64,000 bases of DNA, from NCBI GenBank assembly GCA_001768565.1, contig MEOE01000014.1:82267-146266 (forward strand), read 5' to 3'. The stretch is from Bacteroidetes bacterium GWF2_33_16. Lineage in GTDB: Bacteria > Bacteroidota > Bacteroidia > Bacteroidales > UBA12077. The position numbers and the translations under genes were made by a program. Below are positions 513-26,253 of this stretch, in pieces (position 1 is the stretch's first letter; each line of letters opens with the position of its first letter). The notes beneath the pieces are model-generated. The model searched no databases. It saw nothing but the letters and a program-made list of their open reading frames with translations, and was not told the origin of the DNA.

Positions 513-553
513 ACTAACCATCTGTTTTAATCTGAATTACAAACTTTACAAAA

Positions 554-2332: not shown

Positions 2333-2389
2333 TGCAGTTTTTAAATTAAAATGTTGTAGAATACTGATTTTGTAACAAACCAAACAAAA

Positions 2390-5300: not shown

Positions 5301-6127
5301 AATTTGCAGAAAAATATAATAATGAATTAAATGCCATTATTGTATTCTCCGAAAAAGAAGTTTCATCAAATACAAGTATTGAGCTATTTAACCTGGCAAT
5401 TATAACTGGTAAGCTAGGTAAAACTGCTAATGGCCTTATCTCTCTAAAAGAAAAAAATAATTCTCAAGGATTATTCGATATGGGAATATCATCTAAAAAT
5501 GGTATTGGTTATATTGATCTTGAGAATCCAAGGCTCCTGGCAAAACTAAAGGATACCTGGGGTATTAACAGTTTTCCTGAAAAAAGTGATAAATGCATGA
5601 AAGAGCTTCTGAACGATGCGAGCATTAAAAGTTTCTTTATTTTTGGCGAAGATCCTGTTGGTTGCGCTATTGATAAAGAAAAAGTGCAAAAATGGTTTGC
5701 CGAATCGGAGTTTGTTATGGTGCAGGATTACTTTATGACTGAAACAGCAAAAATTGCAAATCTCATTTTGCCTGCTGTATTCCCTCTTGAAACAACCGGA
5801 AGTTTTACCAATACACAAAAAATGATTCAGGAGTTCGTGAAACAAACTACTATTCCTGTCGAAAAGGAAAACTACGAACAATTAATAGCTCTACTTAATA
5901 ATTTTACAGATAAGAATCACAAAACTATTGATGATGTTCGTAAAGAAATATATAAACTTCTGCCCGAACAAAAAGAGAAATTGAAATATTCACTTGTTTA
6001 TACGCAAAAAGAAAACCTGAATAAATCGTTTAAGTATGGTTGCGATTTTGTAGTGAAATATTTTGATGAGAATTTCGAGAAATCGTTGGTTAAGAAAAAT
6101 GAGAAAATAGTTTCCGAGAAAAAATAA
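2390..6127 (+). CDS. 1245-aa fusion: plant-type 2Fe-2S domain + GltD/NfnB-like NADPH-FAD module + NuoG-like 4Fe-4S domains + cysteine-less molybdopterin-oxidoreductase-like domain
   Basis: N-terminal C..SCYVC..C ferredoxin fold. GltD-like CKQRCPAG...ICGRVCVRPCEVAC, then the IIGAGPGGL and VVGGGNTAMDC dinucleotide folds. NuoG-type CILCARCVRIC and CESCGLCISTCP; MopB-type CKYCSVGCEV. Where formate dehydrogenases have CxRxC/U-H, this protein reads NNISSFHYVGQG. Confidence 0.85.
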   Translation: MKMSNQLNIILNGKNVKGNTGETILQLANRNGIDIPTLCNDQRLKPFSSCYVCVVQIDGVKNLQPSCSTIIQEGMKIETENAKVKKARKTALDLLLSNHYADCEAPCKQRCPAGVDVQGYISLIEKGLYSEAIGLIKQTNPLPAICGRVCVRPCEVACRRNNLDEGTAVGIDYLKRFAADKDLLSKTRYIPEIAPSTGKKVAIIGAGPGGLSTAYFMQQKGHQCDIFEANSNPGGWLRYGIPEYRLPNDILDKEVRAVTELGVTIFYNKKLGENLSFKELNSNYNAVVLTIGSQRGTTIGCEGDDAENVFSGIDFLRNMEVTGQKYDFKGKTIAVVGGGNTAMDCCRTSIRCGAEKVYVIYRRTEKEMPANPIEIHESKIEGVEYLFLTNPTRVNKDKDGKIKSMTCIKMALGEPDASGRRRPVPIEGSEFDIELDFALAAIGQKTEVTFLDDINKFAKDGQLEVNRWGDITADKATLQTGIKSVFAAGDGVTGPATIIEAVAQAKIASRSCHQFLMGEELKPEPKEFVSRKDNFKELTKSDFLGRYQKQIREEMPVLKAESRMNFNEVELGYTNEKVAKHETERCLECGCNEFFTCDLKKFATEYDADQKHYDGDFNNYNIDFSHPYIEIDNNKCILCARCVRICKEVVGANALGLVNRGFKTYVAPSMGLSLTETNCESCGLCISTCPTGAITENFTFKPGPVKLNTVNTLCKYCSVGCEVEYHYRGDFVWKVTGKNGLVNKDGNICRYPKFGYQIMHDTKRITQPLFRVDDNYEVITWQKAFDIIVDEIKGSDPNEIGFFAGARLSNEELYLIQKLARVGAKSNNISSFHYVGQGSGYATNSVANVPFDQIKQASRIYLLGSEVNRDNAVVGFMINNAREINKIPVELITNLNNSKLSHKVDKQLNIKSYYHFVKAVNFYLLKKGLQNALFLKDQCEGFNEYKKSLLNENFDLLVTESGVASKEYLEEFAEKYNNELNAIIVFSEKEVSSNTSIELFNLAIITGKLGKTANGLISLKEKNNSQGLFDMGISSKNGIGYIDLENPRLLAKLKDTWGINSFPEKSDKCMKELLNDASIKSFFIFGEDPVGCAIDKEKVQKWFAESEFVMVQDYFMTETAKIANLILPAVFPLETTGSFTNTQKMIQEFVKQTTIPVEKENYEQLIALLNNFTDKNHKTIDDVRKEIYKLLPEQKEKLKYSLVYTQKENLNKSFKYGCDFVVKYFDENFEKSLVKKNEKIVSEKK

Positions 6128-6138
6128 AACCTAAGAAT

Positions 6139-6594
6139 ATGAGCGAATTTAAATCTATTAATGATATTCTTGATTTTGCAATGAATGCAGAACAGGAAGC
6201 AGTTGATTTTTACAATCAACTTTCGGAAAATGCCAAAACAAAAGATATGAAGGCAGTATTTACCCAGTTTGCACAAGAAGAGATCGGACACAAAACCCGA
6301 TTATTAAAAATCAAAAATGAAGGTATATATAAACTCGAAAAAGAAGAAATAGCAGATCTTAAAATAGCAGATTATGTTGTGAGTGCAAAGCCAACTCCAG
6401 AGATGAGCTATCAGGAAGCACTTGTTTTAGCAATGAAAAAAGAAAAAGCGGCATTCAAATTATACCTCGAACTCTCTAATAGAGCTAAAAATACTGATAT
6501 GAAAAATGTTTTTCTTTCTTTGGCTCAGGAAGAATCAAAGCATAAGCTAAGATTCGAGCTTGAATACGATGAGCATGTTTTACGTGAAAACTAA
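6139..6594 (+). CDS. Ferritin-like diiron-carboxylate protein (rubrerythrin-family four-helix bundle without rubredoxin domain)
   Basis: Two internal repeats each carrying E...EExxH (AEQEA...QEEIGH; KKEKA...QEESKH). Starts 11 nt after the preceding gene. Confidence 0.7.
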   Translation: MSEFKSINDILDFAMNAEQEAVDFYNQLSENAKTKDMKAVFTQFAQEEIGHKTRLLKIKNEGIYKLEKEEIADLKIADYVVSAKPTPEMSYQEALVLAMKKEKAAFKLYLELSNRAKNTDMKNVFLSLAQEESKHKLRFELEYDEHVLREN

Positions 6595-6612
6595 TATTCT
6601 TTAAATTGATAT

Positions 6613-6647
6613 AAGCATGAAAGAAATCCTTTCGTGCTTATTTTTTT
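6613..6647 (+). terminator. Rho-independent terminator after the ferritin-like gene
   Basis: aagcatgaaag / ctttcgtgctt stem (one G-U pair), 5-nt loop, followed by a T7 run. Confidence 0.7.
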
Positions 6648-6744
6648 ATTACTACCAGATAAGTTATTTTTGTGATTCTATTTTTGAATTAAGTTATATA
6701 TTTATTCAAGAATTTTAACGTTATATAAAATACAAATTAGCAAA

Positions 6745-8745
6745 GTGAAAAATCTCTTTTTATTTTTAAGTGTAAGTTTTTTGTCTATAAGTTTTTTGTT
6801 TGCTCAACCTGATACCTTGAAAATTGAAAAATCAAATGATAAGGTTATTATTGGCGGTCAGGTGTACTATGTTCATATAGTTAAACAAGGCGAAACGCTT
6901 TATTCTATTAGTAATGCTTATGGCGTTTCTCAAAAAGAGATTGCTAAAGAAAATCCGGAAATATTTCTTGGCTTAATTATTGGCCAAGCCTTAAAAATTC
7001 CATTGGTTAAACCTGAGAACGAAAATGACGAACAGGTAGAAAACGATAATTTTATTTATCACAAGGTTAAGAAAGGACATACATTGTATTCCCTATCAAG
7101 AAAGTACAATGTGTCTCAAGAGGAAATAATTAGACATAACCCAACAGTTCGTTATGGAATCAATATTGATCAGATAATAAAAATTCCAAAAACAAATTAT
7201 CAAAACGAAGAAGTATCTATACCCAAAACACAAACTTTAACTGACACAATTAAGATTAGTGATCAGTATTTGTATCATGAGGTAAAAAGTAAAGAAACTA
7301 TCTATTCATTAGTTAGGGTATACCATATTTCTGAAGAGCTTCTATATGATCTTAATCCATTTTTGTCAGATGGTTTAAAAGTTGGACAGATTTTAAAAAT
7401 TCCTAAAGTTCATGGTGCTGAAGATGGTTTCGTTTTTGAAGATATTACTGCTCAAGTAAAAGATACAGTTGTTTATGAACGTAGAAATCAACTTGCTTAT
7501 TCCGATTCTATTGTTTTTTCGCAATGTGATTCGTTGAGGCGAAAACAAGTTAATCCTTTTAATGTAGCTGTGCTTTTACCATTATATATAGAACATAGCG
7601 AACAAGAGTTTTATATTGATTCTTCAAAAGTAAATGAATTTGGAAAAAAGATTTATGAAACTATTTACCGTGCACCAAATTATATTTACCCTAGAGCAAT
7701 AAACTATGTAGAATTTTATGAAGGTATATTGTTAGCCGTAGATTCTCTCAAAAAGCAAGGGTTTTCAGTAAATCTTCATGTGTTTGATACAGATGGCGAT
7801 ACAAATAAAGTAAATGAAATCCTTCGTCAGCCAAAGATGAAGAATCTTGACCTAATAATTGGACCGGTATATTCTAATGAGGTCGAAATTGTTTCAAATT
7901 TCTCTCTTAAACATAGAATAAAAATGGTATCACCTTTTTCAGATAATATGTTATTGCTCGAAAAAAATCCATTTTTATTTCAGGTAAGTCCTAGCTTTTC
8001 TTCACAGTTTGATAAATTAGCACAATTTTCATCTGATTATAAAAATAAAAATATTGTTTTATTGCATAATATTGATTCAGGCCAATACGAGAGTATCAGT
8101 TTATTAAAAGAGAAACTTTTTAATTATTATTCGCTCGACACTTCTATACGAGATCTTCAGTTCAAAGAAGTTCACTTTAGCGATAGTATTCATGTAATTG
8201 AACATGCCCTTACAAAGAATAATGAGAACATTATTATTGTTCCATCGAATGACCAGGCTTTTGTTTCGCTTGTAATATCAAACTTAAATTCACTTGTTTC
8301 TAAGGGGTATTCTATAAAAACATTTGGAATGTCTCGATGGTACCGTTTTGATAATGTTGATCCCGAGTATTTCTATAACCTTGCTACTCATTTGGTTGTT
8401 CCCTTTTATATCGATTATAAAGATCAAAAGGTTAAAGATTTTATATTAAAATATAGGTATCTGTTTAAATCAGAGCCAGATCAGTATGTTATGCATGGAT
8501 TCGATGTAAGTATGTATTTTCTTACTGCATTGCAAAAATATGGTAACGATTTTCAAAATTGTATTTATCATCATAAGGTTGATTTACTTCAATCAGATAT
8601 GCATTTTGTTAAATGGTATGAATATTCTGGATTTGAGAATATAGGTGCATCTCTAATAAGATATGATAGCAATTATAGTATTACTATTGTAAGTGATGAT
8701 AAAAAAAGCGAACCCGAAAAGTCGCAAGTGTTTCTTAATAAATAA
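6745..8745 (+). CDS. Secreted protein with three LysM repeats fused to a type-1 periplasmic-binding-protein-like domain
   Basis: GTG start and signal peptide. Three LysM units (YVHIVKQGETLYSISNAYGV, YHKVKKGHTLYSLSRKYNV, YHEVKSKETIYSLVRVYHI), then a ~400-aa PBP-like region. Confidence 0.75.
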   Translation: MKNLFLFLSVSFLSISFLFAQPDTLKIEKSNDKVIIGGQVYYVHIVKQGETLYSISNAYGVSQKEIAKENPEIFLGLIIGQALKIPLVKPENENDEQVENDNFIYHKVKKGHTLYSLSRKYNVSQEEIIRHNPTVRYGINIDQIIKIPKTNYQNEEVSIPKTQTLTDTIKISDQYLYHEVKSKETIYSLVRVYHISEELLYDLNPFLSDGLKVGQILKIPKVHGAEDGFVFEDITAQVKDTVVYERRNQLAYSDSIVFSQCDSLRRKQVNPFNVAVLLPLYIEHSEQEFYIDSSKVNEFGKKIYETIYRAPNYIYPRAINYVEFYEGILLAVDSLKKQGFSVNLHVFDTDGDTNKVNEILRQPKMKNLDLIIGPVYSNEVEIVSNFSLKHRIKMVSPFSDNMLLLEKNPFLFQVSPSFSSQFDKLAQFSSDYKNKNIVLLHNIDSGQYESISLLKEKLFNYYSLDTSIRDLQFKEVHFSDSIHVIEHALTKNNENIIIVPSNDQAFVSLVISNLNSLVSKGYSIKTFGMSRWYRFDNVDPEYFYNLATHLVVPFYIDYKDQKVKDFILKYRYLFKSEPDQYVMHGFDVSMYFLTALQKYGNDFQNCIYHHKVDLLQSDMHFVKWYEYSGFENIGASLIRYDSNYSITIVSDDKKSEPEKSQVFLNK

Positions 8746-11809: not shown

Positions 11810-12184
11810 CTAAAGTGATAGTGCTTTAACTATTGTTTGAATCTTACTAAAAGAATATGGTTTGGTAAGCAAGTGATTGAATCCTGCATCTTTGTAATCA
11901 TCAAAAAAATCTTCCGGATTGTAAGCAGTGATTGCAATAATTGGAATATTACATAAGGGTGATGATAATCGCCTTCTTATATATTTAGTTGTTTCAAGTC
12001 CATTCATAATAGGCATTTCAATATCCATAAAAACAATATTGATTTTATGGGTTTGCAGTAATTCAATTGCTGTTTTACCATTATCTGCTTCATAAATTTG
12101 AGTACAAAATCCTTTAACTATTTCCTTTAAAAGAATTCTATTCATAAAAATATCGTCAATTATCAAACATGAAAATGGGTTCAT
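11810..12184 (-). CDS. Single-domain response regulator (REC only)
   Basis: IIDD acidic pair, FMDIEMP phospho-acceptor Asp, AITA Thr and LTKP Lys. Starts 3 nt after the Crp/Fnr gene stop. Confidence 0.85.
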   Translation of the reverse strand: MNPFSCLIIDDIFMNRILLKEIVKGFCTQIYEADNGKTAIELLQTHKINIVFMDIEMPIMNGLETTKYIRRRLSSPLCNIPIIAITAYNPEDFFDDYKDAGFNHLLTKPYSFSKIQTIVKALSL

Positions 12185-12187
12185 AGA

Positions 12188-12880
12188 TTATCCGAGTTTA
12201 CTTAATGTATTTATAATATCAAAACTATTTATTTTTATATATCTACCGTCGATATCAATAATTTTATCGTTCTTAAATTCAGCTAAAGTTCTTATTATGC
12301 TTTCTTTTGTAGTACCAGCTAATTCAGCAATTTCAGTTCTCGACAAAGGAAATTCAAATGTATCTGAATTATAAATTTGTTTCGAGAAAAAAAGTAGTAT
12401 TTCTGCAACCCTTCCTGGAAGTTGCTTCTGATTTTGAGTCATCAGTTTATCAAAAAAATAAAGATTGTCAGTGCTTAATAATTGTAGTAATAAAGATGCA
12501 AATTTCCCATTTTGTTCAATAACACTCTTAAATGTTGCGATATCGATGAATAATATTTTAGCGTCAGTGATTGCGGAGGCCGAATAACGAAAAGTTTCCT
12601 CCCCAAAAATTGAAATATTGGCTAAAAAATGCTCAGGGGTAATTATTTTAAAAATGATTACTTTTTTATTACGGCCTTCTTTAAGGATTTTTATTAATCC
12701 CGATTTAATAAACATAACATGCGATGTGCGTGTATTTTGCTTAAAAATAATATCTTTTGCATTAAATTTAACGATATTACTATTATTACTTATAAGTTCA
12801 ATTTGTTCAGAGGTCAGATATTCTGAATAAGGAATTTCACTTTGGGATTTATTTTTAACAGAAGGAGAAACCATAAGCAT
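12188..12880 (-). CDS. Crp/Fnr-family transcriptional regulator (cNMP-binding-like domain + C-terminal HTH)
   Basis: 230 aa, beta-roll-like N-terminal half and C-terminal LSRTEIAELAGTTKESIIRTL helix-turn-helix. No N-terminal Cys cluster, so it is not a classical FNR. Confidence 0.8.
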   Translation of the reverse strand: MLMVSPSVKNKSQSEIPYSEYLTSEQIELISNNSNIVKFNAKDIIFKQNTRTSHVMFIKSGLIKILKEGRNKKVIIFKIITPEHFLANISIFGEETFRYSASAITDAKILFIDIATFKSVIEQNGKFASLLLQLLSTDNLYFFDKLMTQNQKQLPGRVAEILLFFSKQIYNSDTFEFPLSRTEIAELAGTTKESIIRTLAEFKNDKIIDIDGRYIKINSFDIINTLSKLG

Positions 12881-13058: not shown

Positions 13059-13427
13059 ATGAATATAGAAAAAAATATTCTGGTGGTCGATGATTCAGAA
13101 ACAAACCTTGTACTAATAGAAGCTATTTTAGAAGATGAAGGATTTTTAATTAAATCGGCATTTAGTGTAAAGGAAGCTACAGAACTACTTAGTGATTATA
13201 TTCCTGATTTAATCTTGCTCGATTTACTTATGCCAAATGAAAATGGATTCGATTTATTGAAGAAATTAAAATCAAATATTAACTATTCAAAAATACCTGT
13301 AATAATAGTTACAGCCTTTGCAAATAAGGAAAATTCAGCTATGTCATTTGATCTGGGGGCAATTGATATTATCGAAAAACCTATTGATATTCCATTGTTT
13401 TTAGAAAAAGTTAATAAGGCATTATAA
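13059..13427 (+). CDS. Single-domain response regulator (REC only), first gene of the chemosensory cluster
   Basis: VVDDSE, LLDLLMP phospho-acceptor Asp, VTAF, IEKP Lys. Confidence 0.85.
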   Translation: MNIEKNILVVDDSETNLVLIEAILEDEGFLIKSAFSVKEATELLSDYIPDLILLDLLMPNENGFDLLKKLKSNINYSKIPVIIVTAFANKENSAMSFDLGAIDIIEKPIDIPLFLEKVNKAL

Positions 13428-13450: not shown

Positions 13451-15232
13451 ATGACAATTAAAAACAAGCCAAATAAAATTGAAATAGATGCTTTGCTGAA
13501 CACATATTCTGTAAAGGAGATAACAGATATGTTCGCTACAATTGACGAGAAAATTATGTCGTTACATGAATGTTCATCTGATGATTTTCTTATGTTAAAT
13601 TCAAGCTTCAAGGATGCGTACAAACTTGCAAAAAGTATTGATTCAAATGTTGCAATTACTTTAAATGATATAGAAAAAATTAATATTTCACAGTTGCTTG
13701 GTACATTAAATGGGTTAAACAAAAAGATAAAGATAATCAATAAAGAAGCTGCAATAATCGATAATCAAATAGTGAAGATTCTTGAAGATTTATTAAATAA
13801 AACCAGATTAGTTTATATCCCTTTAAAAAATCATGGGCAAAATTTAATGAGTCTGAAACTTTTAATCACCAACCTTAAGTTTTATGATTCTACCGATATT
13901 GAGGTAATCCCTGATTTAATTGATTTTATTTTAATATCAGAGCGATTTTTATTAAAAAGTAAAGTATTAACAGAACGAAATTTTAGAGAGGTAAATAATC
14001 TTAGAAAAAAGACAAAAAATTGTATTACTAACTTTAAAATTCTATTAAAAAGTAAATCAGAAATTAATTCCATAATAAATGAAGAAACTGCTAAAACAAT
14101 TGAGTCTCTTCGCAAATTGGATAAATTACTAAAACATAAACCTACACTTAAAAAAAGATGTGATGATTTAAATAATAGTGTTGAATATATAATTACTAAT
14201 TTGCAATATCAGGATATTATCAGGCAAAAAATGGAGCATATTCAACAAACTCATAAAGATTTTTTGCATGAACTTGATACGTTTGATAAAAGCTTTACTG
14301 AGAATAATGTAATCAGTGAAAAGGCAAAACAGTTTGTACGAATACGCGATATCTCTGGATTACATGCAGCCAAATTATTACAAACAAATAAAGAATATCA
14401 GGGAGCAATCGAGGTTATTATAAGAAAGTTCTTGAAAATAAGTGATAATATAGGTAAGAATTCGAATCTTTTTCAAAGCCTAGGAATACAAAAAACTTTC
14501 ACTTCTGAGGACTTTAATAAAATATCAGGTCATCTCGAAAATTGTAAAACAAAACAAAAACAGGTTTGTAATGAATTAAATGCCTTATATAGGGAGTATA
14601 ATCGTGAATTAATTAATGCAAATCAATTAGATGTATTAGAAAAAGACATTCATTTGCATTTTACTCAAAACATAGAACGACTGCAGGATTTCTATCCAGA
14701 TAAAGAAAATACAAAAAGCCATCTAAAACAGTTAATCCAATATATAAATGATTTAAGGTTAAATGTTGATCGTTTAAACAAGCATTTTGTACCAATTTTT
14801 AAATTAAAAGAAGAATTTAATTCAGCGAATTTTAAAATACAGAATTTTAAAAAGCAAAGAGACCTATATGCTCAAACAATAAATAAAAATACCAGGATTA
14901 CAACTATTATTTCTCCTGTAATTGATAAAATAGTTAATAATGAAAAAAACAATATCGAGCTTGTAAATTGTATTAAGCAAGCAACTTCATCGGTAAAATA
15001 CTATGGGTTCTTCGATAATATAATTAATGAGATAATTAATATTCTTGGTAGTATTAATCTTCGTCTTAAAAATTCATATTCAGGAACCATCGATATGGAA
15101 AAAGAAAAGCTTAATCAATTGAAAGAGTATTATACAATGGATATAGAATATAAAATCCATGACCGTGTGCTAAAAACTAAAACAAATAGGAAAACTAACG
15201 AAACGTTGGATAAAGGAATTGAGTTTTTTTAA
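13451..15232 (+). CDS. 593-aa predicted all-helical/coiled-coil protein of unknown function; CheZ-like D-x3-Q motif and MCP-like C-terminal tail
   Basis: Long uninterrupted ORF 23 nt after the REC gene with K/E/N/L-rich heptad-like sequence. Motif LQYQDIIRQKMEHI at nt 14201-14242; C-terminus LDKGIEFF. Function is not assigned. Confidence 0.8.
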   Translation: MTIKNKPNKIEIDALLNTYSVKEITDMFATIDEKIMSLHECSSDDFLMLNSSFKDAYKLAKSIDSNVAITLNDIEKINISQLLGTLNGLNKKIKIINKEAAIIDNQIVKILEDLLNKTRLVYIPLKNHGQNLMSLKLLITNLKFYDSTDIEVIPDLIDFILISERFLLKSKVLTERNFREVNNLRKKTKNCITNFKILLKSKSEINSIINEETAKTIESLRKLDKLLKHKPTLKKRCDDLNNSVEYIITNLQYQDIIRQKMEHIQQTHKDFLHELDTFDKSFTENNVISEKAKQFVRIRDISGLHAAKLLQTNKEYQGAIEVIIRKFLKISDNIGKNSNLFQSLGIQKTFTSEDFNKISGHLENCKTKQKQVCNELNALYREYNRELINANQLDVLEKDIHLHFTQNIERLQDFYPDKENTKSHLKQLIQYINDLRLNVDRLNKHFVPIFKLKEEFNSANFKIQNFKKQRDLYAQTINKNTRITTIISPVIDKIVNNEKNNIELVNCIKQATSSVKYYGFFDNIINEIINILGSINLRLKNSYSGTIDMEKEKLNQLKEYYTMDIEYKIHDRVLKTKTNRKTNETLDKGIEFF

Positions 15233-15245
15233 AAACCAAAAATAT

Positions 15246-15569
15246 ATGAGTAACAAGGATTTTAAAATAAAAACGTTGCCTTCTAAAAACAAAAGGGAGA
15301 AAAAAGCAGAAATAGTCCTCGAAAACGAATTGACTATTTTTACATTAGAAACTCTTCAACACGATTTGGTTAAGGCGCTAAATGAATTTGATGACATTAC
15401 AATAAAGCTTAGAAATATTGAAAATATAGATTTGAGTTTTATTCAGTATCTTTTTTCATTGCAAACATCTGCCGCTGCAAAATCTAAAAATTTGAGCTTT
15501 ACTGCAGAGTATAGCGATGAAATAAAATCATTATTGGTTAATACAGGACTATTAAGATTATTCAATTAA
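15246..15569 (+). CDS. STAS-domain protein (SpoIIAA/anti-sigma-antagonist-like)
   Basis: ~107 aa with STAS-like topology (ENELTIFTLETLQHDL...IDLSFIQYLFSL...LLVNTGL). I prefer ATG 15246 over the track's TTG 15219, which overlaps the upstream gene. Confidence 0.65.
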   Translation: MSNKDFKIKTLPSKNKREKKAEIVLENELTIFTLETLQHDLVKALNEFDDITIKLRNIENIDLSFIQYLFSLQTSAAAKSKNLSFTAEYSDEIKSLLVNTGLLRLFN

Positions 15570-15591: not shown

Positions 15592-15957
15592 ATGGCAAAA
15601 ACTATTTTAATTGTTGATGATTCTGAAAGCATTAGAGAAGTAGTAAAATTTACACTCGAAAACGAAGGTTACACCGTTTTGGTTGGTGTGGATGGAAAAG
15701 ATGCTCTAAAATTTCTGGATGGACAAACCATCGATTTGGTTATTACTGATTTACATATGCCAAACATGGATGGTATTGAGCTTATTAAGCATATTCGAAC
15801 AATCGAGGCTTATAAGCGAATTCCTATTTTGTTCTTAACAACCGAATCGCAAGTATCCAGAAAAATGGAGGCAAAAGATGCCGGAGCCACAGGTTGGATA
15901 ATTAAACCATTTGTTCCTACTAAATTGTTAGAAGCACTTAAAAAAGTAATACGATGA
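15592..15957 (+). CDS. cheY: Chemotaxis response regulator CheY
   Basis: VDDSES, ITDLHMPNMDG, LTTES, IIKPF; stop overlaps the cheA start (ATGA). Confidence 0.9.
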   Translation: MAKTILIVDDSESIREVVKFTLENEGYTVLVGVDGKDALKFLDGQTIDLVITDLHMPNMDGIELIKHIRTIEAYKRIPILFLTTESQVSRKMEAKDAGATGWIIKPFVPTKLLEALKKVIR

Positions 15958-18005
15958 GTATTGACAAATTTAAAGACAAATTTAAAGAAGAAGCCTCCGA
16001 TAACATCAATGACTTAGAAAATGCATTGTTGGAACTCGAGAAAAATACGACTAATAAAGATCTTATTGAGCGTGTTTTCAGAGCAATGCATTCACTAAAA
16101 GGAGGTGGTGCAATGTTTGGGTTTACTGCTTTAAGTGAGTTTACACACAACCTTGAGACATTGTACGATAAGGTTAGAAATGGCTTAAAAGTTATTGACA
16201 GAAAAATTCTGGATATCACTTTTGAGGCTGCTGATCATATGAAATCCTTATTGGCTGACGAATTGATGACAAATAATGAAATTAAAACCAAACACAAACA
16301 ATTGGCAGCCAATATTGAGTCTCTGATTTCTGATGATACTCAAACCGATGTAATTCCAAAGTCAGGTTCATCATCCGAATCTTCAATTAAAACATATTAT
16401 ATTTATTTTGAACCAAATCCTGATATTTTTGCCAATGGTACAAATCCCTTATATTTAATTGATGAATTAAATTCTCTTGGTAATTGCAAAGTGTTTGCTC
16501 ATTTTAATAAAATACCTCCAATTGATGAGATTGATATTAATAAATGCTATACATATTGGGAAATTTTATTAGCTACAAGCACTGACGAGAATAGTATTGC
16601 CGATGTTTTTATTTTTGTAGAAGATCAATGCAAACTTGAAATAGATGAAGTTGCTGATAACGATATAACAATCCATGCTGATTTTATACATGCAATTACA
16701 AGATTAGCCATTGAAAAGAAGGATGTTGGAATAGTAGAAATAAAAAATCTTATTAAGAAGCTAAAGTTAAATGCTAATGTAGCTTTAGCGGAATTGAATG
16801 AACCTGAAAAAAGGATTGAGAGCTCTAAGGTTAAAGAAACCACTATTTCAAGTATTCGTGTTTCATCAATTAAATTGGACCAGATGATGAATCTTGTAAG
16901 TGAGTTAGTTACTACTCAGGCAAGATTAACTTTATTTGCAGAGAAAACAAACAATACTGAACTAAATGCAATTGTTGAAAATATGCAGAAACTGTCGCGC
17001 CAGATTCGCGATAATGCATTCGATATTGTTCTTATTCCTATTGAGACAATGCTTATTCGTTTTCAGCGATTGGTTCGGGATTTGTCTCAGGAACTGAAGA
17101 AAAATGTTGTATTCGAAGCTATTGGCGCCGAAACAGAACTTGATAAAACAATCATCGAAACACTTACTGATCCAATCTTACATATTTTAAGAAATTGCCT
17201 TGATCATGGTATCGAATTGCCCGAAGTAAGAAAGAAATTGGGTAAACCGGAACAAGGGAAAATTATTTTAAAATCATTTTATTCTGGAACCAATGTTCAT
17301 ATTCAGATTATTGATGATGGTGCAGGAATTGATCCGGAAAAAATTCGTAAGAAAGCAATTCAAAAAGGAATTATCTCGGAAAATGATGAATTATCAGATA
17401 CTGAAATTTTTGATTTGGTATTTATGCCAGGATTCTCTACAGCCGAAAATGTTACGGATGTTTCGGGAAGAGGCGTTGGAATGGATGTCGTTAAAAGAAA
17501 TATTAATGAGTTAAGAGGGGATGTGGTTGTCGATTCCGAAATTAATAAAGGAACAACTTTAACAATCAGGTTACCACTTACTCTTTCAATTATTGATGGG
17601 CTACTTGTGCGAATTGATAATGATTTATACGTAATTCCATTATCTGTTGTAAATAAAATCCATGTAGTTGATCATGATAGTATTTCATCCAAGTTCAATA
17701 ATTTAATAGTACTTGATGGTGTTCAGTACTCATTCTTTGTACTTAGAAATGAGTTGGGTTATAAGAGCGAGCCACCAAAGACTGAAAGGTTAATACTTGT
17801 ATCATACGAAACTGGATTAGTTGGTTTGGTTGTTGATGAAGTATTCGGAGAAAACCAAGCTGTTTTAAAATCATTAGGGAAATTGTATAAAAATCAGGCA
17901 CTTATTTCGGGTGCTACAATTCTTGGTGATGGTACTGTTGCTCTCGTGCTCGATACTAATAAAATGATTAAGAAATTTTCAAAAAACTCAGAAATAATTA
18001 ATTAA
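15954..18005 (+). CDS. cheA: Chemotaxis histidine kinase CheA (P1 Hpt to P5 CheW-like)
   Basis: Hpt site FRAMHSLKGGG, N box HILRNCLDHGIE, G1 DDGAGID, F box GFSTA, G2 GRGVGMDVV, and a C-terminal CheW-like domain. Confidence 0.95.
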   Translation: MSIDKFKDKFKEEASDNINDLENALLELEKNTTNKDLIERVFRAMHSLKGGGAMFGFTALSEFTHNLETLYDKVRNGLKVIDRKILDITFEAADHMKSLLADELMTNNEIKTKHKQLAANIESLISDDTQTDVIPKSGSSSESSIKTYYIYFEPNPDIFANGTNPLYLIDELNSLGNCKVFAHFNKIPPIDEIDINKCYTYWEILLATSTDENSIADVFIFVEDQCKLEIDEVADNDITIHADFIHAITRLAIEKKDVGIVEIKNLIKKLKLNANVALAELNEPEKRIESSKVKETTISSIRVSSIKLDQMMNLVSELVTTQARLTLFAEKTNNTELNAIVENMQKLSRQIRDNAFDIVLIPIETMLIRFQRLVRDLSQELKKNVVFEAIGAETELDKTIIETLTDPILHILRNCLDHGIELPEVRKKLGKPEQGKIILKSFYSGTNVHIQIIDDGAGIDPEKIRKKAIQKGIISENDELSDTEIFDLVFMPGFSTAENVTDVSGRGVGMDVVKRNINELRGDVVVDSEINKGTTLTIRLPLTLSIIDGLLVRIDNDLYVIPLSVVNKIHVVDHDSISSKFNNLIVLDGVQYSFFVLRNELGYKSEPPKTERLILVSYETGLVGLVVDEVFGENQAVLKSLGKLYKNQALISGATILGDGTVALVLDTNKMIKKFSKNSEIIN

Positions 18006-18013
18006 GGAGGTAA

Positions 18014-18508
18014 ATGATGAAAAATGATTCTCTTATAAAAATAAATTCATATTTATCATTTAAGTTGGGTGATGATGAATTTGCTGCTCATGTTGGTAAA
18101 GTTCTAAATATATTGGAACTGGTAAAAATTACTCCTGTACCAAAATCTCCCGAGTATATGAAAGGCGTTATTAACTTGCGAGGTGCAGTTTTGCCTATAA
18201 TTGACACACGAATGAAATTCGGGATGTCGCCGACTCAATTCACTCAAAATACGTGTATTGTTGTTATGGAAATACTAATGGAAAAAGATACCATACAATT
18301 GGGTGCATTGGTTGATTCTGTTCTCTCAGTTGTTGAAATTGAAGATGATCAGATTCAGCCACCACCAAGCCTTGGTAGTAAATACAAATCTGAATTTATC
18401 TTGGGCGTAGCTAAGGTTGAAGAAAAATTTATTATGATTCTTGATATGGATAAGGTATTTTCTTCTGATGAACTTATTCTTGTCATGGATAGTACTGAGG
18501 ACTTATAA
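18014..18508 (+). CDS. cheW: Coupling protein CheW
   Basis: 164-aa CheW fold (EFAAHV...[16 protein letters not shown]...). Preceded by GGAGG at 18006-18010; the start could be ATG 18014 or 18017. Confidence 0.9.
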
Positions 18509-18518
18509 AAACAAGCTA

Positions 18519-20438
18519 ATGAAATCATTAAATAATATAAAAATTGGTACAAGACTAAAAATTCTTGTAGGATTAGCCATAATCTTTGTAATCTCGTTAT
18601 TGGGTTTTGAAACCTATATTGTTAATAAAAGAGTAATTACAAGAAATACCGATTTACAGGTCTTTTCTAACATTGATCAGATTTCGGACTTGATTGATCA
18701 TCACCTGATATCGGGGAAAGCTCAAATTCATGATGCCATGTTGATTTTGAGTAATACCCTTGGGCAATCAAACAGTTTGACAATTAATAAGGGTAATCAA
18801 GTGCTTTACACTGAAGATATTCAGGGAAATAAAACTAGCTATAATACATATCAATGGAATTTTAAAGGAGAGATAATTAATAAAAACAAGGAATTTATCA
18901 AAAGCTTTGATATGAATGCAGGAGTTAAAGTAACTATGTATCAGAAGTATAAGGATGGTTATTTACTAATTTTTTCAAATATTGATAGAGCAGATCAAAG
19001 TTTTGTTTATCAATCCACGTTGGCTAAATCTCTTCCTGAGATTCAGAAAATTGAAAACGGTGAAAAATTTGAAACTCTTAAAATTGTAAATGGTAACTAT
19101 ATTAATTATTTATGCGATCCCATTTGGCTAAATGGAGAGATCGCAGGAATGGTTGTTTTGCAGAATAAAGCATTAGATTTTTCGGTTTTATCTGAAATAT
19201 TAAAAAGAAAAAAATACTTTGAGGATGGATTTGTTTCATTAATTCGAAACGACGGTTATTTTCTGTATCATCCAGAATTACAAGGCTTGCAAGCAAATCA
19301 GTATAACTTTTTTAAACAACTTGCAAAAAGCACTCAAGAGCAAAATAAAATTGAATTTTTGTGGCCTGAAAATGAATCTGGGAAAACGAAGTTTTTTTAT
19401 TCAAAGTATAAAACAGGACTTGATTTTTATATTACAATTATTTTCGATAAGGGAAATTTATTTGAATCGTTGAATAAACTTGTTATATCGATTTTATTTG
19501 CAATAACTTTAGCCGTATTATTGTTTTTTGCAATAATATCAGCTTTTTCTAAAAAACTTGTTGGCAATATAAACCAGGGTGTCAATTTTGCTCAAAAGGT
19601 TTCTGAAGGTGATTTGTCGGCTACATTTGATTTAAATCAAAAGGATGAAATTGGCGTATTGGCAAATGCATTAAACAATATGGTTGTTCACCTCAGAAGT
19701 ATTGTTGATCAGGTAAATGTTAGCTCAACAAACATTGCATCTGCCAGCCAGGAAATAAATTCAGGTTCGCAGCAGTTGTCCCAAGGAGCAAATGAACAGG
19801 CTGCTTCCACTGAAGAAATATCCTCATCTATGGAGCAAATGGTGGCAAATATTCATCAGAATACAAATAATGCTATCCAAACTGAAAAAATATCGCGAAA
19901 ATCATCTGAAGGAATGCATACTGTGCTTAACTCTGCAATGCAAAACAGAAGATCAATTATAAATATTGCAGAAAAAATTACAATTATAAACGAAATAGCT
20001 TTTCAAACAAATATTCTCGCACTTAATGCTGCAGTTGAGGCTGCAAGAGCAGGTGAGCATGGAAGAGGTTTTGCTGTAGTGGCAAACGAAGTAAGACGAT
20101 TAGCTGAACGAAGTAAGTTTGCTGCTCAGGAAATTGATGAATTATCAAGAACTAGTGTTGATGTTAACGATGAGGTTGCAAAATTGATGGAACAAATTAC
20201 ACCAGAAATTGAAAGAACTTCCAGACTTGTTCAGGAAATAGCCACTTCAAGTCTTGAACAGAATTCTGGAGCTGAACAAGTAAATAGTGCCATTCAACAA
20301 CTGAATCTGGTTACACAACAAAATGCTGCCGCATCTGAAGAATTAGCTTCTTCGGCTCAGCAACTCGAATTTCAGGCAAATAAACTTAAAGAGAATATCA
20401 GGTTTTTTCAAAAGGAATCAACAATCCTGATTAAATAA
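18519..20438 (+). CDS. Methyl-accepting chemotaxis protein 1 (periplasmic Cache-like sensor, HAMP, MA domain; no C-terminal tail)
   Basis: Start moved to ATG 18519 ([10 protein letters not shown]), since the track's 18441 start overlaps cheW. Two TM segments, HAMP ([13 protein letters not shown]), tip [35 protein letters not shown]. Confidence 0.9.
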
Positions 20439-20468: not shown

Positions 20469-22418
20469 ATGAAAATAAATGATTTGAAAATAGGAGTCAA
20501 GCTCGTTATAACCCTTATGTCAGTTACTATAATAATTGTACTCATGTTGGGAACATATGCCTATTTAAAAAATAAAACCAGGATTCGAAATTATTCTGAT
20601 GAATATATAAAAGGAGTAATAAACGGATTGGATGAATATATAAATTATCATTTTCTTGATTATAGAAGTAATCAATTAAAATCAAATGATTTAATAGTAA
20701 AATTAATAAATGAAAAAGGAGATATTAATTCTATAACTTCTGATTTATTAAATCAAATTAAGATCATAACAAATACAAGTTCTGCTGTATTTCAAAAAAC
20801 AGCTAAAGGCTTTGTTTGCATTGGTTGTTCAGACAATAAAAAATGGAGTATTGGAGATGTTATTACATTGAGCTCTGATACTGTTATCGAAATAGAACAA
20901 CAAGGTGCATTTTATGATCAATTATTTACTAATTCAATAAAAGAATATGGTATTTACAAACCAATCTATAGTAAAGAAAAACTGCATTCAATAGTATATA
21001 CAGGCACAAATAAAAACTATGTAAATATTGTTTATGAATTATTTAACTCAAAATCATTTTATACTGACGGTTTTGTATTTATGGTATCGAAAAATGGAGA
21101 TATAATAATTGAACCAGAAATTGCTAAAGATTTAATTGATATTGATCTGGTAAAGAATCAGATACTAAAACAAAAAAAAGATACAGGAAAGATTAAATAT
21201 ACTGATGATTCGGGAAATGTAAAATACTTGTATTATAAATTCAACATTAATTCAAATGCATACCTTGGTGCAATGGCATCTGATCAATATATTTTTGTGG
21301 AGTTGGTTAATTTTAGAAAACTTATTTATGTAAGTATTTTCTTTGCTTTAACTATCTTCTTTATTTTACTCGTTTTTATATCAAAAAACATTACAAGACC
21401 ATTAAAAAAAGGAGTTGAATTTGCTCAAGAAGTAACTAATGGAAACCTTGAGGTTACAATAAATATTGAACAGAATGATGAGGTTGGTTCATTAATAAGT
21501 GCACTAAACAAAATGGTACTAAATCTTAGAAATATTGTAACCGAAATAAATACAAGTACCGATCAGATTGCCGTTTTAAGTATGCAAATGAGTTCAAGTT
21601 CACAGCAATTATCTCAGGGCGCAAGTGAACAAGCATCATCAGCCGAAGAGGTTTCATCCTCAATGGAGGAAATGGTTTCAAATATTCAACAAAATGCAGA
21701 TAATGCTCAGCAAACAGATAAAATTTCGCTAAAAGCTGCAGAAGGAATGAATAAGGTTAAAGATTCATCAGCGCATAATTATGAAGCTGTTAATAATATT
21801 GCTGATAAGATTTCTGTCATTAATGATATTGCATTTCAAACCAATATTCTTGCATTGAATGCAGCAGTTGAAGCTGCAAGAGCTGGCGAACATGGAAAAG
21901 GATTTGCTATGGTTGCCAATGAAGTCCGTAAACTTGCTGAACGAAGTCGTGTTGCTGCTGATCAGATCGAGAAACTTTCCAGAACAAGTGTAAAAGCAAA
22001 TGAACAGGTAGCTCGATTAATGGAAGAGATTGCACCTCAGATAGAAACCACAGCAAAACTGGTTCAGGATATTACTGCTGCTAGTCTCGAACAAAACTCA
22101 GGGGCCGACCAGGTAAATAGTGCAATTCAGCAATTAAATCAGGTTACACAACAAAATGCTGCGGCTTCAGAAGAACTTGCTACTAGTGCCGAAGAGCTTG
22201 CCAGTCAGGCGCAACATCTTAAAGATACTATATCCTATTTTAAAATTGGTATCGATAAAACATCCGAAATTGAACAAAAATTAACCAATTATAATGTTAC
22301 GCCCAAAATAATGTCTCAGGATAGTTTTGCAATGAAAGTACAGGATGTTCAAAAATCGGGAGTCGAAATTAACCTAATTGATGATAAAAAATTAGATGAT
22401 AGTTACGAAAGTTTTTAA
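20469..22418 (+). CDS. Methyl-accepting chemotaxis protein 2 (Cache-like sensor, HAMP, MA domain, C-terminal ...[12 protein letters not shown] tail)
   Basis: Same architecture and conserved hairpin tip ([22 protein letters not shown]). ~60-aa linker after the signalling domain, ending in YESF. Confidence 0.9.
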
Positions 22419-22456: not shown

Positions 22457-23176
22457 ATGAAAAAAAGCTACATTTTACTATTGCTTGTATTTACAGCAAG
22501 TATTAATTTCAATGCATTTTCTCAAGAAGATGAAAAATCAGGTTGGGATGCCAGTGTGGGAACCGACCTCGTAAGCAGATATATCTGGAGAGGCCTTGCT
22601 AGTTCAAAAACTCCTGCTTTACAACCATATTTAGAAGTTTCTAATGGAGGATTTGCTATTGGAACCTGGGCTTCTTATACTATTGGTCAGGAAATTATTC
22701 AGGAAATAGATTTGTATGTTTCATACTCAATTGGAGGAGTTACATTCGCTATAACCGACTATTTTGCTTATGAAGATACACTTCCATCGTTCGATTTTTT
22801 TAATTTTAGTAGTAGATCAACCGCTCATTTACTCGATGCTCAATTAGTTTACGAAGGCCCTGAGTCATTTCCCATTAAAGCAACTTTATCTACATTATTT
22901 TTTGGTCCCGATAAAAATGTTGATGGTAAAAATAATTATTCCACTTATATTGAACTTGGTTATAATTTCGGTATAAATGATTTTTCAATTTTACCTTTTG
23001 CTGGATTTAGTGTAAACGAAGGATTCTATAATTCAAAAGCAGGATTTATTAATTGTGGCATTACTGGCGAAAGCGAAATCAAAGTAAATGAAAATTTTAC
23101 TGTTCCAATATCTGTTTCTTTTATTACTAATCCTTTAGATAATAATGCATTTGTAGTATTAATGTTAAGCTTTTAA
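22457..23176 (+). CDS. Signal-peptide-bearing predicted outer-membrane beta-barrel, possibly TorF/Gcw_chp-family porin
   Basis: Signal peptide, alternating-hydrophobic strands, C-terminal aromatic residue (LSF). N-terminal [36 protein letters not shown] resembles the SDYxFRGxSQT..PAxQG motif of the TorF family as I recall it. Confidence 0.55.
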
Positions 23177-23187
23177 AAATTATACAT

Positions 23188-25272
23188 ATGAATAACTTTA
23201 AATTATCCTTACGAGCAAAAATGATATTATTAATACTTTCAACAGTATTTATTGTTTTTGCAGCCATTTTTTCATATCTGGCAATTTCAACCCGGTCTGA
23301 AGCTATTAATAAAGCTAAAGAACTTGCTGTAATAACAGCAAGAAGTGTTGCACACGAAACTGAAGCATTCTTTTCGCAGGGAGCTTTAGTTACAAGAAGT
23401 GTAGCCCAAAACTTACTCGCCTTAAAAGAATCAGGAATGACAGACCGTAAGCATACAAACCAAATTCTAATAAATACTTTGGAACAAAATAAAAATTTCT
23501 TATCATTCTGGACTCAGTGGGAGCTTGGTGCATGGGACGATAAAGACAAACAATATATAAACCAAATTGGATCTGATAAACTTGGAAGATATGCAAATAC
23601 CTATTTCCGTGATCAGGGCAAAACAGTATTAAGTGATGCTACTTTAACTGAGGTAGCAGATGAAGAAGACTACTATGCTATACCTAAAGAAACGAAGAAA
23701 GAAACAATTCTTGAACCTTACTATTATAGCTACACAATTGATAGTGAAACAGAATTTTATGAAACTTCTTTTATAGTCCCTGTTTTATACAAAAAAGAGT
23801 TTTTGGGAGTTGTTGGAGTTGATTTCGAACTAACTGAGTTGCAAAAAATCTGTAACAAAGTAAAATTGTTTAATTCTGGTTATGCATATATAGTTTCAAA
23901 TCAATTCATAATTACTGCATTTAAAGATTCCTCATTTATTAATAAAAACTATTTTGATTTTATTAAAAAAGATGGTGAACTAATAAAAAATGCAATCTCA
24001 TCTGGTTTTGAGTTTAATAATGAAGATATATCATTTCTTGAAAATGAAAATGTCTTTCGCTCGTATGTTCCAATCAAAATTGGTAATACAACTTCTCCGT
24101 GGAGTGTTTGTGTTGAAGTGAATAAGGATGAAATATTAGCAGAAGCACAAGGTAAATTTATAACCATTATCTTAATTGGTATTGCTGGCATACTTATAAT
24201 TGCTATGCTAATTTCAATTATTGCTCGCAACATTACAATTCCTTTATTTAAAGGAGTTGAATTTGCACAAAAAATTGCCGAAGGTGATCTTGAGCATGAT
24301 ATTGATATTAATCAGAACGATGAGATTGGGTTACTTGCCGAAGCATTGCAGAATATGGTGGTTAAGTTACGCGAAATTGTAAATGGTATAATTTTTAGTG
24401 CCGATAATATCTTTTCTGCTAGTCAGCAACTGAGTTCAAACTCCCAGCAAATGTCGCAGGGAGCTAACGAACAAGCATCATCTGCTGAAGAAGTATCGTC
24501 ATCAATGGAACAAATGGCTGCAAATATCCAGCAAAATACCGATAATGCGCAACAAACTGTTAAAATTTCGACCAATGCGGCTGATGGTATGAAAGTGGTA
24601 ATGAAAGCTGCCAAAGATAATAGTATAGCTATTAAGCAAATTGCAAAGAAAATCTCTATAATTGACGATATAGCCTTCCAAACCAATATATTGGCCTTGA
24701 ATGCAGCCGTTGAGGCAGCCAGAGCAGGTGAACATGGAAGAGGATTTGCTGTGGTTGCAAACGAAGTTAGAAAGTTGGCTGAAAGAAGTAAAGTAGCTGC
24801 CGATGAAATTGATACATTGTCAAAATCGAGTGTTGATGTTAATGATGAAGTAACCAAACTTATTGAATCTATTGTGCCAGAAATTGAAAAAACATCAAAA
24901 CTTGTTCATGAAATTTCAGCTGCTAGTCTCGAACAAAATTCAGGTGCTGAACAAGTCAATAGTGCTATTCAACAACTTAGTCAGGTTACACAACAAAATG
25001 CTGCTGCTTCAGAAGAATTAGCTACTAGTTCAGAAGAATTAGCCAGCCAGGCCAAACAGCTTAAAGATAATATTGCGTATTTTAAAACTGGCCTGGAAAT
25101 GGAATATGATGAGGCTGATGATGAATTGGTTGCACTGAAGAAAACAAAAAAAATAGTTTCTAAAACAAAAAAAGTAAATATCGTTAAAAAGACTAAAGGA
25201 AATTCACAACATGGAGTGGAAATAAATCTGAGCGACGATAGAAAACTTGATAGTGATTATGAAAGTTTCTAG
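23188..25272 (+). CDS. Methyl-accepting chemotaxis protein 3 (double-Cache-like sensor, HAMP, MA domain, C-terminal ...[12 protein letters not shown] tail)
   Basis: Cache-like [19 protein letters not shown]...[24 protein letters not shown], tip [22 protein letters not shown], and a lysine-rich linker followed by the YESF tail. Confidence 0.9.
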
Positions 25273-25395: not shown

Positions 25396-26253
25396 ATGCA
25401 GGATACAGGTATATTCTCTTTTTATAATGCTAAATTATCTCAGGCTGACTTTGAAAGGTTAAGTCGCTTTATTTTTGATCAGTCAGGAATAAAACTACCT
25501 CAGGTAAAGCTAATTATGCTACAGAGTCGTTTGCAAAAAAGACTCCGCGATTTAAGCATGACTACTTTCAAAGAATACGTTGATTATGTTTTTAGCCCCG
25601 AAGGTCTCGAAAATGAGATTGTCCATATGCTCGATGTAGTTAGTACCAATAAAACTGATTTTTACAGAGAGCCAGTGCATTTCGACTTTTTAAATAATGT
25701 GGCCCTACCAGAATTTTACGAAAATGGAAAAAATCTGAATAATTTTCTAGTTTGGAGTGCTGGATGCTCAAGTGGTGAAGAACCATATACTATTGCATTC
25801 ACATTGTCAGAATTTAGAGAGAAATTTCCAGCTTTTAATTATAATATAATTGCTACCGATATTTCTGCTCAGATTTTAAATAAAGCGAAATTAGCAGTAT
25901 ATAAAGAAGATTTGATTAGCTCGGTACCGTTTTTTATTAAGAAGAAATATATACTTAAAAGTAAAGATCGAAATAATAAAACTATCCGAATTAATAAAGA
26001 ATTAAGAGATAAAGTAAATTTCTTTAGGTTTAACTTTATGGAAACTACTTATAATTTGCCACATATGTTTGATGTTATTTTTTGTCGGAATGTACTTATA
26101 TATTTTACGCGTGAAACTCAGGAACAGGTTCTTATAAAACTTTGCTCAAAACTTAAACCTGGAGGATATTTATTTATTGGACATTCTGAATCAATTCTTG
26201 GAATGGAACTTCCAATTCTGCAAATTAAACCAACAGTTTATAAAAGGATTTAA
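25396..26253 (+). CDS. cheR: Chemotaxis protein methyltransferase CheR
   Basis: N-terminal helical CheR domain, TDFYRE motif, SAM-binding VWSAGCSSGEEPYT, and FCRNVLIYF. Confidence 0.9.
   Translation: MQDTGIFSFYNAKLSQADFERLSRFIFDQSGIKLPQVKLIMLQSRLQKRLRDLSMTTFKEYVDYVFSPEGLENEIVHMLDVVSTNKTDFYREPVHFDFLNNVALPEFYENGKNLNNFLVWSAGCSSGEEPYTIAFTLSEFREKFPAFNYNIIATDISAQILNKAKLAVYKEDLISSVPFFIKKKYILKSKDRNNKTIRINKELRDKVNFFRFNFMETTYNLPHMFDVIFCRNVLIYFTRETQEQVLIKLCSKLKPGGYLFIGHSESILGMELPILQIKPTVYKRI

Follow-up and report, generated by a model that had tools for sequence, protein, structure and literature searches.

Chemosensory pathways that serve purposes other than the control of flagella are still little understood, and for the ancestral F7 system we know of no mechanism by which the signal is terminated. 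The subject of this study is a che gene cluster in a 64,000-nucleotide (nt) stretch of contig MEOE01000014.1 of Bacteroidetes bacterium GWF2_33_16 (this whole stretch is referred to as the window). In this cluster an open reading frame (ORF) of 593 amino acids (aa), here called protein X, lies between a stand-alone receiver, REC0, and a STAS-CheY-CheA series. The initial annotation had assigned to X a CheZ-like D-x3-Q motif and a C-terminal tail like that of the methyl-accepting chemotaxis proteins (MCPs), and had proposed a phosphatase or scaffold docked by the same partner as the MCP tails. The analysis described here identifies X as a conserved, previously unannotated component of a Bacteroidales chemosensory pathway, in which hallmark residues of receiver phosphatases are carried by an unrelated scaffold. 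Our best explanation is a tentative one, with a probability of about 0.3: X would dephosphorylate a receiver as a tethered D-x3-Q phosphatase, convergent with CheZ and with the HisKA_3 kinases. The most robust new result concerns the tail, a pentapeptide-like version of which is common to three non-receptor protein classes of the operon besides the chemoreceptors.

The ORF call agreed with the initial annotation in coordinates and length (Table 1). Scans of X against Pfam and NCBIfam gave no match, and the domain-library matches obtained with X, 49 homologues and isolated motif regions were rejected as coiled-coil noise. A word-indexed search returned 214 relatives, all of about 600 aa, and those with a name were all called "hypothetical" and came from metagenome-assembled genomes (MAGs) of Bacteroidales/Bacteroidota. 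With phmmer, 1.8 billion representatives were searched exhaustively, and 311 family members (representatives at 50% identity) were recovered, nearly all of full length apart from fragments. In a scan of one genome per species X was found in 271 species genomes, rumen and gut lineages included, and all of these belonged to Bacteroidales/Bacteroidota except one MAG labelled Thiohalospira. Under this gamma-proteobacterial name, contig JBKHIH010000004.1 (L025) carries a full Bacteroidales-type cluster; it is probably a binning error. A profile search with the conserved core of X for relatives of other architecture returned three fragments only. The family has no annotation and belongs to none of the curated families tested; no publication on it was found, and the literature searches returned no description of chemosensory accessory proteins of Bacteroidales.

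Conservation was assessed in an alignment of 49 sequences with 23-84% identity to the window protein. The best-conserved stretch, IITNLQYQDIIRQKMEHIQxTHK, coincides with the motif region, which the initial annotation had placed exactly, and Q252, D255, I256, I257, Q259, K260 and H263 are invariant in 49/49 sequences. The pattern LQ[YF][QH]DII[RKQ]QK was present in all 82 homologues (82/82), those outside che clusters included. D255 and Q259, which had been compared with D143 and Q147 in the DFQDLTGQ motif of E. coli CheZ, are thus without exception in both sets, although overall identity among the homologues is as low as 23-45%; the reference itself is correct, and the CheZ sequence used here is identical to chain Z of PDB 1KMI. 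From background ORFs of the same genomes (343 kb-equivalent), [FYW]QD[LIVM]xxQ is expected 0.0035 times per 593 aa. Taking into account this low expectation and the invariance in 82/82, the motif in X is unlikely to be a chance occurrence. Further conserved blocks were found at residues 28-60 (LHxCSSDDFLxLN), 118-145, 297-330, 505-535 (IKYYDFFE) and 555-575 (YTMxSEHxIHD). In the second conserved block (R297-I323) L309, Y316, A319 and I323 are invariant, and H39, C41, H263, H268 and H570 are conserved.

A model calculated by AlphaFold2 with the family alignment is all-helical, with nine helices of 26-75 residues and a mean predicted local distance difference test score (pLDDT) of 77. It sets the motif inside a helix spanning approximately residues 230-281, in agreement with the long helix that had been predicted. 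When residues 226-345 were modelled on their own, the result was an antiparallel hairpin (helices 230-280 and 288-344, pLDDT 85, variable tip), in which the D-x3-Q block occupies the middle of the first helix and the second conserved block lies opposite. Judged by helical periodicity, not by the coordinates of the model, Q252, D255, Q259 and E262/H263 would point to the side away from the hydrophobic seam, although with a weak hydrophobic moment, and the invariant I248 and I256 are also off the seam. A polar stripe of this kind would fit an exposed surface for binding or catalysis, but is no proof of one. Foldseek matched the whole model to SMC, PrgA and other coiled coils, and the core hairpin to generic hairpins only, all with E>=0.05 and with 1KMI outside the top 50.

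The stripe also contains the invariant H263, one turn past Q259, and from this residue a different role can be derived. X could be a His-phosphotransfer protein, similar to Spo0B or to Hpt domains, in which H263 would shuttle the phosphoryl group between REC0 and CheY or the divergent receiver. A Thr is common at position H+4 (T267, 71%), as in HisKA H-boxes, the hairpin architecture resembles that of DHp/Spo0B, and four receiver domains are encoded in the cluster (Pfam). However, none of the Hpt, HisKA and Spo0B profiles matched X, an acidic residue at H+1 is missing, and CheA already possesses an Hpt domain of its own. In our judgement phosphotransfer is quite improbable.

The Pfam assignments reproduced the neighbours originally named, the orphan receiver before X and STAS, CheY and CheA after it. 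Pfam domains of CheZ, CheC, CheX and FliY were not found in the ORFs scanned across the window, nor were flagellar genes. Synteny was analysed in 80 loci from the genome scan, using our own ORF calls and blastp against the window proteins; four loci obtained by exact protein look-up had the gene order of the window. The usual order is REC(-) Crp(-) / REC0 X STAS CheY CheA CheW [MCP] CheR His-less-kinase CheD CheB [GAF/PAS]. In 60/80 loci the gene immediately before X was REC0, the median gap being 18 nt, and in 64/80 STAS came immediately after X. Across the related loci 60 ORFs received the Crp label and 50 the label of the divergent receiver, and this conserved divergent pair hints at a transcriptional branch or output.

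Table 1. Features of protein X and of the surrounding chemosensory gene cluster (window positions).
Feature	Position	Strand	Assignment and remarks
Receiver, divergent	11810-12184	-	Pfam; beside Crp-family regulator
Crp-family (cNMP-binding) regulator	12188-12880	-	Pfam; divergent from REC0-X operon
REC0, stand-alone receiver	13059-13427	+	Pfam Response_reg 1.7e-24; DD/D/T/K active-site residues complete
Protein X gene	13451-15232	+	593-aa ATG ORF; all-helical, cytoplasmic, no known domain
X, most conserved block I247-D270 (IITNLQYQDIIRQKMEHIQQTHKD)	14189-14260	+	Holds the motif, D255, Q259 and H263
X, motif LQYQDIIRQKMEHI, residues 251-264	14201-14242	+	
X, D255 codon	14213-14215	+	Motif Asp
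X, Q259 codon	14225-14227	+	Motif Gln
X, second conserved block R297-I323 (RIRDISGLHAAKLLQTNKEYQGAIEVI)	14339-14419	+	Hairpin partner helix, facing motif block
X, C-terminal region, residues 543-593	15077-15229	+	pLDDT <50; ends GIEFF (15215-15229)
STAS_2 protein	15219-15569	+	Pfam STAS_2 7e-07; true start probably ATG 15246
CheY	15592-15957	+	Pfam
CheA	15954-18005	+	Pfam; own Hpt domain
CheW	18014-18508	+	Pfam
MCP1	18441-20438	+	Pfam; no tail; listed TTG start overlaps cheW; true start probably internal ATG near 18519
MCP2	20469-22418	+	Pfam; ends SYESF
Gcw_chp-family protein	22457-23176	+	Pfam; embedded among MCP genes
MCP3	23188-25272	+	Pfam; ends DYESF
CheR methyltransferase	25396-26253	+	Pfam CheR 2.7e-59
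His-less HisKA/HATPase protein, 308 aa	26265-27191	+	Pfam HATPase_c; H-box FISNITNEIINPF; tail ...DKEEVF
CheD	27202-27675	+	Pfam
CheB	27686-28771	+	Pfam
GAF + 3xPAS protein, 758 aa	28923-31199	+	Pfam; no recognised output domain; ends ...NISVDLF
TPR histidine kinase	31267-33627	+	Pfam

To our knowledge, pentapeptide-like tails have so far been described only on chemoreceptors, and an E-x-F tail shared by non-receptor proteins throughout a cluster has not been described. The tails quoted in the initial annotation (X, ...LDKGIEFF; MCP2, ...LDDSYESF; MCP3, ...LDSDYESF) were read correctly. In the alignment E591 and F593 are invariant at the end of X. The C-terminal region that they terminate is likely to be disordered, as judged from the model, and the linker after block 555-575 is variable and acidic in most homologues, though not in the window copy. 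A tail of the form [DE]-x-[FY]-COOH was present in 80/82 X proteins (typically [DNE][ILV]E[FL]F), 41/52 His-less kinases (typically [ED][ED]E[TIV]F; the misses include unrelated kinases under the same label), 13/14 GAF/PAS proteins (typically [SE]V[DE]LF) and 31/38 cluster MCPs (typically x[YF]E[KSNQ][FY]). The corresponding counts in the core proteins were 0/63 for CheA, 1/65 for CheW, 0/44 for CheR, 0/36 for CheB, 0/41 for CheD, 0/71 for CheY and 0/67 for REC0, and among other ORFs, taken as background, the tail was found in 7/821 (0.85%). X and the GAF/PAS protein fall into one tail class, [ILV][DE][LF]F. Many X homologues have a second, internal copy of the tail (GDVDLF), and His-less kinases have an internal NE[LFIM]FF.

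In chemoreceptors the pentapeptide tethers CheR and CheB (PMC7390727). It has aromatic residues at positions 2 and 5, of which position 2 is considered essential for CheR binding (PMC7390727; bioRxiv 10.1101/2024.03.07.583918), and in E. coli it also binds CheB, selecting the phosphorylated, open form (PMC8609364). The tails of the cluster MCPs satisfy this rule (x[YF]Ex[FY], 31/38), whereas the X tail fails it: 80/82 sequences have Phe at position 5, but at position 2 nearly all have Ile, Leu or Val. Because of this aliphatic residue the X tail is pentapeptide-like and not a canonical pentapeptide. The closest solved structure to the window CheR is the pentapeptide-binding Salmonella CheR (1AF7/1BC5), to which its beta-subdomain aligned without gaps. 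Of the earlier proposal that X shares its tail and a docking partner with the MCPs, the E-x-F-COOH end stood, and was extended to four protein classes of the cluster, whereas at position 2 X departs from the MCPs. The distribution of the tail strengthens the idea of a shared docking partner.

These data also suit a non-catalytic role. X could be a helical scaffold or adaptor that, by way of its tail, is recruited to CheR/CheB or another common partner, or itself recruits them. It would help to bring X, the His-less kinase and the GAF/PAS sensor together in a module specific to Bacteroidales, with the hairpin surface as a protein-binding site. The presence of the tail in X, His-less kinase, GAF/PAS protein and MCPs and its virtual absence from the core Che enzymes, the tail class common to X and the GAF/PAS protein, and the known tethering function of MCP pentapeptides (PMC7390727) all fit a scaffold. 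So do I248 and I256, since invariant and apparently exposed hydrophobic residues are expected of a binding surface, and the association of X with cheW or MCP genes even where it is dispersed from the che cluster (see below). Less easily accommodated are the aliphatic position 2, in place of the aromatic residue regarded as essential to CheR binding (PMC7390727; bioRxiv 10.1101/2024.03.07.583918), and the near-invariance of a 24-residue block on several helical faces, which exceeds the usual conservation of scaffolding surfaces; moreover, X has no homology to known array scaffolds. We regard the scaffold as a serious candidate, albeit not a probable one.

A tether-like tail would also be expected of a receptor, and approximately 27 related clusters contain CheR, CheD and CheB but no MCP gene inside. 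X could then be a highly diverged soluble chemoreceptor, that is, a methyl-accepting, kinase-controlling bundle with a CheR/CheB tether. The first PDB match of the X profile was indeed the Thermotoga MCP TM1143 (E=5e-10), and weak MCPsignal matches were obtained with 4/49 homologues (best E=0.004), though none with X itself (Pfam). The TM1143 match, however, covers the variable residues 317-520 of X and is followed in the list by myosin, tropomyosin and designed coiled coils, and is therefore regarded as compositional. In it the MCP tip is aligned to non-conserved X sequence, and hhalign of X against the signalling domains of the window MCPs gave only E=0.15. Cluster MCPs have on average 3.4 copies of the methylation-site consensus [ASTG][ASTG]xx[EQ][EQ]xx[ASTG][ASTG], X proteins 0.02, and AlphaFold2 gives X about nine helices instead of one long hairpin. 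With neither a conserved tip nor a methylation consensus, identity as a divergent MCP was rejected; the receptor explanation is largely refuted and in our opinion very improbable.

The phosphatase explanation, to which we now return, draws on the invariant and apparently exposed D/Q pair, its aromatic-Gln prefix and the hairpin context. It draws equally on the adjacency of REC0 and X, which mirrors cheY-cheZ, on the linker with its Phe-terminal peptide, and on the absence of the classical phosphatases. According to this model, the hairpin (residues 230-344) would display the invariant polar stripe Q252-D255-Q259-H263. D255 would pair with the conserved Lys of the receiver, as the acidic residue does in CheZ and HisKA_3 kinases, and the amide of Q259, four residues on, would position the attacking water at the aspartyl-phosphate. 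The phi-E-phi-F end would dock X to a partner in the pathway and so raise its local concentration. As substrate, the adjacent REC0 comes first into question, with CheY and the receiver of CheB as the next candidates. More broadly, we consider X to be an accessory protein that is specific to Bacteroidales and belongs to a chemosensory pathway of F7-like type.

Several observations weigh against this reading. Of the checks named in the initial annotation, the conservation of D and Q in homologues held, but no significant profile similarity to CheZ was found. X, the 49 homologues and six isolated motif regions did not match PF04344 (CheZ) even at E<=10. In hhalign the X family gave E=0.3 against E. 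coli CheZ, and E=0.53 against a nine-sequence CheZ alignment that is less diverse than that of Pfam (E. coli-like plus plasmid-borne Ralstonia, Pantoea and Photobacterium CheZ, 31-100% identity, with no H. pylori-type CheZ). The sole hhalign alignment lands on the CheZ active-site helix (X 232-285, CheZ 120-176), but it is not significant and requires a four-residue gap, which breaks the D/Q register. Hidden Markov models of the CheZ active-site helix scored <=7 bits and failed to separate X from 3,256 background ORFs, and CheZ was absent from the Foldseek lists of both the full model and the core hairpin. X is, in addition, about three times the size of CheZ and has five conserved blocks besides the motif block, as well as conserved His and Cys residues (H39, C41, H263, H268 and H570) outside the D/Q pair. 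Homology of X to CheZ is thus not supported, and any real resemblance would be convergent: what remains of the proposed likeness is the invariant D-x3-Q on a predicted long helix, not the relationship. Since the unrelated folds of CheZ, CheX/CheC, HisKA and HisKA_3 share an acid-x3/x2-amide logic, the missing homology is no argument against the mechanism.

Other counter-arguments come from the gene context. The phosphatase could be the His-less kinase of the same cluster instead of X. Its H-box, LK[ST]HFISNITNEI[IV]NPF in 41/44 orthologues, differs from the canonical FLANMSHELRTPL by Asn in place of the phospho-accepting His, and retains E-x-x-N, a motif that is linked to the phosphatase activity of HisKA. 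Its sequence would suit either a dedicated phosphatase or a pseudokinase. The premise that X is the lone phosphatase candidate is weakened by the retained E-x-x-N; the original statement that the cluster lacks CheZ, CheC, CheX and FliY was borne out for the ORFs scanned, but it had not counted this second candidate. A conserved His seven residues upstream (KSHF) and an internal NEFFF motif were also noted in the His-less kinase. The tail is not specific to CheZ-like proteins either, since MCPs and the GAF/PAS protein share it, and proteobacterial F7 clusters of stages 1 and 2 are without cheZ (PMC7184735). Finally, in 14/80 loci, all from rumen/gut MAGs (L044, L047, L051, L057, L059, L062, L066, L068, L069, L070, L073, L076, L080 and L083), X is located outside a che cluster and has no adjacent receiver, yet motif and tail are kept. 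There the typical arrangement is DUF4199-glycosyltransferase (GT2)-X and the tail ...NDVEFF; in 7/14 a cheW-, MCP- or cheY-like gene is still present at no more than 10 kb distance, with cheW immediately downstream of X in L066.

The persistence of X in gut MAGs away from the che cluster would also be understandable if X were the output target of the pathway, binding CheY~P or REC0~P for a non-flagellar output, or a sensor of a metal or cofactor bound by His/Cys residues. As far as we know Bacteroidales lack flagella, which means that some other output would be required of the pathway, and the ORFs scanned in the window include no flagellar gene; the conserved H39, C41, H263, H268 and H570 could serve a sensor. 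On the other hand, X has no recognisable effector or cofactor-binding domain and no partner machinery is encoded nearby, the neighbours at the gut loci being housekeeping genes. We find an output or sensor function unlikely.

The phosphatase and docking ideas can be combined. E-x-F-COOH could be a docking code of the whole cluster, by which the pentapeptide tether of chemoreceptors would be extended to proteins that are not receptors. Both X and the His-less kinase would then be phosphatases tethered by their tails, catching CheB~P, CheY~P or REC0~P and switching it off, and recruitment of the GAF/PAS sensor would use the same code. Two such phosphatases are conceivable because the E. coli pentapeptide selects phosphorylated CheB (PMC8609364). 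We offer this scheme as a speculation to which we attach a low likelihood.

Some further features of X and of the region were recorded. Residues 10-17 of X (13478-13501, + strand) read IEIDALLN, similar to the CheY-binding N-terminal motif of FliM (EIDALL). Close relatives retain I-x-ALL-[NE]-T; as a family feature the resemblance was rejected, the acidic residues being lost in distant homologues. The combination of a Gcw_chp protein with a dCache MCP recurs in related clusters (L006, L009, L033, L035 and L078). Upstream, the genes at 51-8745 match the order in Bacteroidales MAG OY762280 (L006/L035; L006 1-5292), the shared set comprising NuoE/NuoF-like proteins, a 1245-aa Fe-S/molybdopterin oxidoreductase, rubrerythrin, a LysM protein and an M1 peptidase. 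On the other side, an ECF sigma factor (38301-38882, - strand) is followed by two minus-strand ORFs without Pfam match (37736-38299 and 36673-37755), and a TonB-dependent receptor (39096-41159, + strand) adjoins this group. From the shared upstream gene order, the window is taken to come from a related genome of Bacteroidales; its GC content is 31%.

If X is a phosphatase, it represents a further independent origin of the acid/amide mechanism, in which a catalytic logic already known is carried by a new structure. If one partner serves all the tails, the view of recruitment within chemosensory systems changes, and a docking code would mean a new wiring of signal termination and adaptation in non-flagellated bacteria. 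The cluster-wide E-x-F tail is the part likeliest to interest specialists.

Compared with CheZ, X has in common the sequence aromatic-Q-D-[LI]-x-x-Q, situated in a long helix that is part of an antiparallel hairpin (a predicted one in X), the motif block being the best conserved part of the protein in both families. In X a low-confidence C-terminal linker leads to a hydrophobic peptide with terminal Phe (compare ...DDLLDSLGF of CheZ), and its gene directly follows that of a stand-alone receiver, as in cheY-cheZ. In contrast, X has approximately 600 aa and CheZ approximately 214, the motif is on the first hairpin helix in X but on the second in CheZ, and X has the additional invariant residues Q252, K260, H263 and H268 and five more conserved blocks. 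X is restricted to Bacteroidales, shows no detectable homology to CheZ, and its phosphatase role is a predicted one. With HisKA_3 (NarX/DesK-type, H-D-x-x-x-Q) and HisKA (H-E/D-x-x-T/N) X would share an acid-plus-amide pair on an exposed face of a helical hairpin, and an E-x-x-N variant of this pair is carried by the His-less kinase neighbouring X. Unlike these proteins, X is without an ATPase domain, and Y253 and Q/H254 precede D255 where HisKA_3 has His; no profile match of X to any histidine-kinase dimerisation domain, HisKA_3 included, was found.

The tail of X resembles the chemoreceptor pentapeptide (NWETF; x-[WYF]-x-x-[FWY]-COOH) in its extreme C-terminal location after a probably disordered linker, in Glu at position 3 and Phe at position 5, and in the negative charge of most homologues, and it co-occurs with the canonical x[YF]Ex[FY] tails of the cluster MCPs. 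It differs in being carried by a non-receptor and in having Ile, Leu or Val at position 2 and a hydrophobic residue at position 4. The system as a whole can be compared with stage-1 F7 clusters of gamma-proteobacteria (Vibrio, Pseudomonas, Shewanella), which have the order STAS-cheY-cheA-cheW-receptor-cheR-cheD-cheB, lack cheZ and are not known to have an output (Ortega et al. 2020, PMC7184735). The window and most of the 80 related loci follow this order, and judged by it the X cluster seems to have a core like that of "stage-1" F7, supplemented by genes specific to Bacteroidales; the two also agree in the lack of cheZ in the cluster and in a function unlinked to flagella. The Bacteroidales clusters differ from stage 1 in that REC0 and X are added in front, the His-less kinase is inserted between cheR and cheD, and the GAF/PAS protein is placed at the end, whereas the terminal second STAS and PP2C phosphatase of stage 1 are missing and a receptor gene is often absent.

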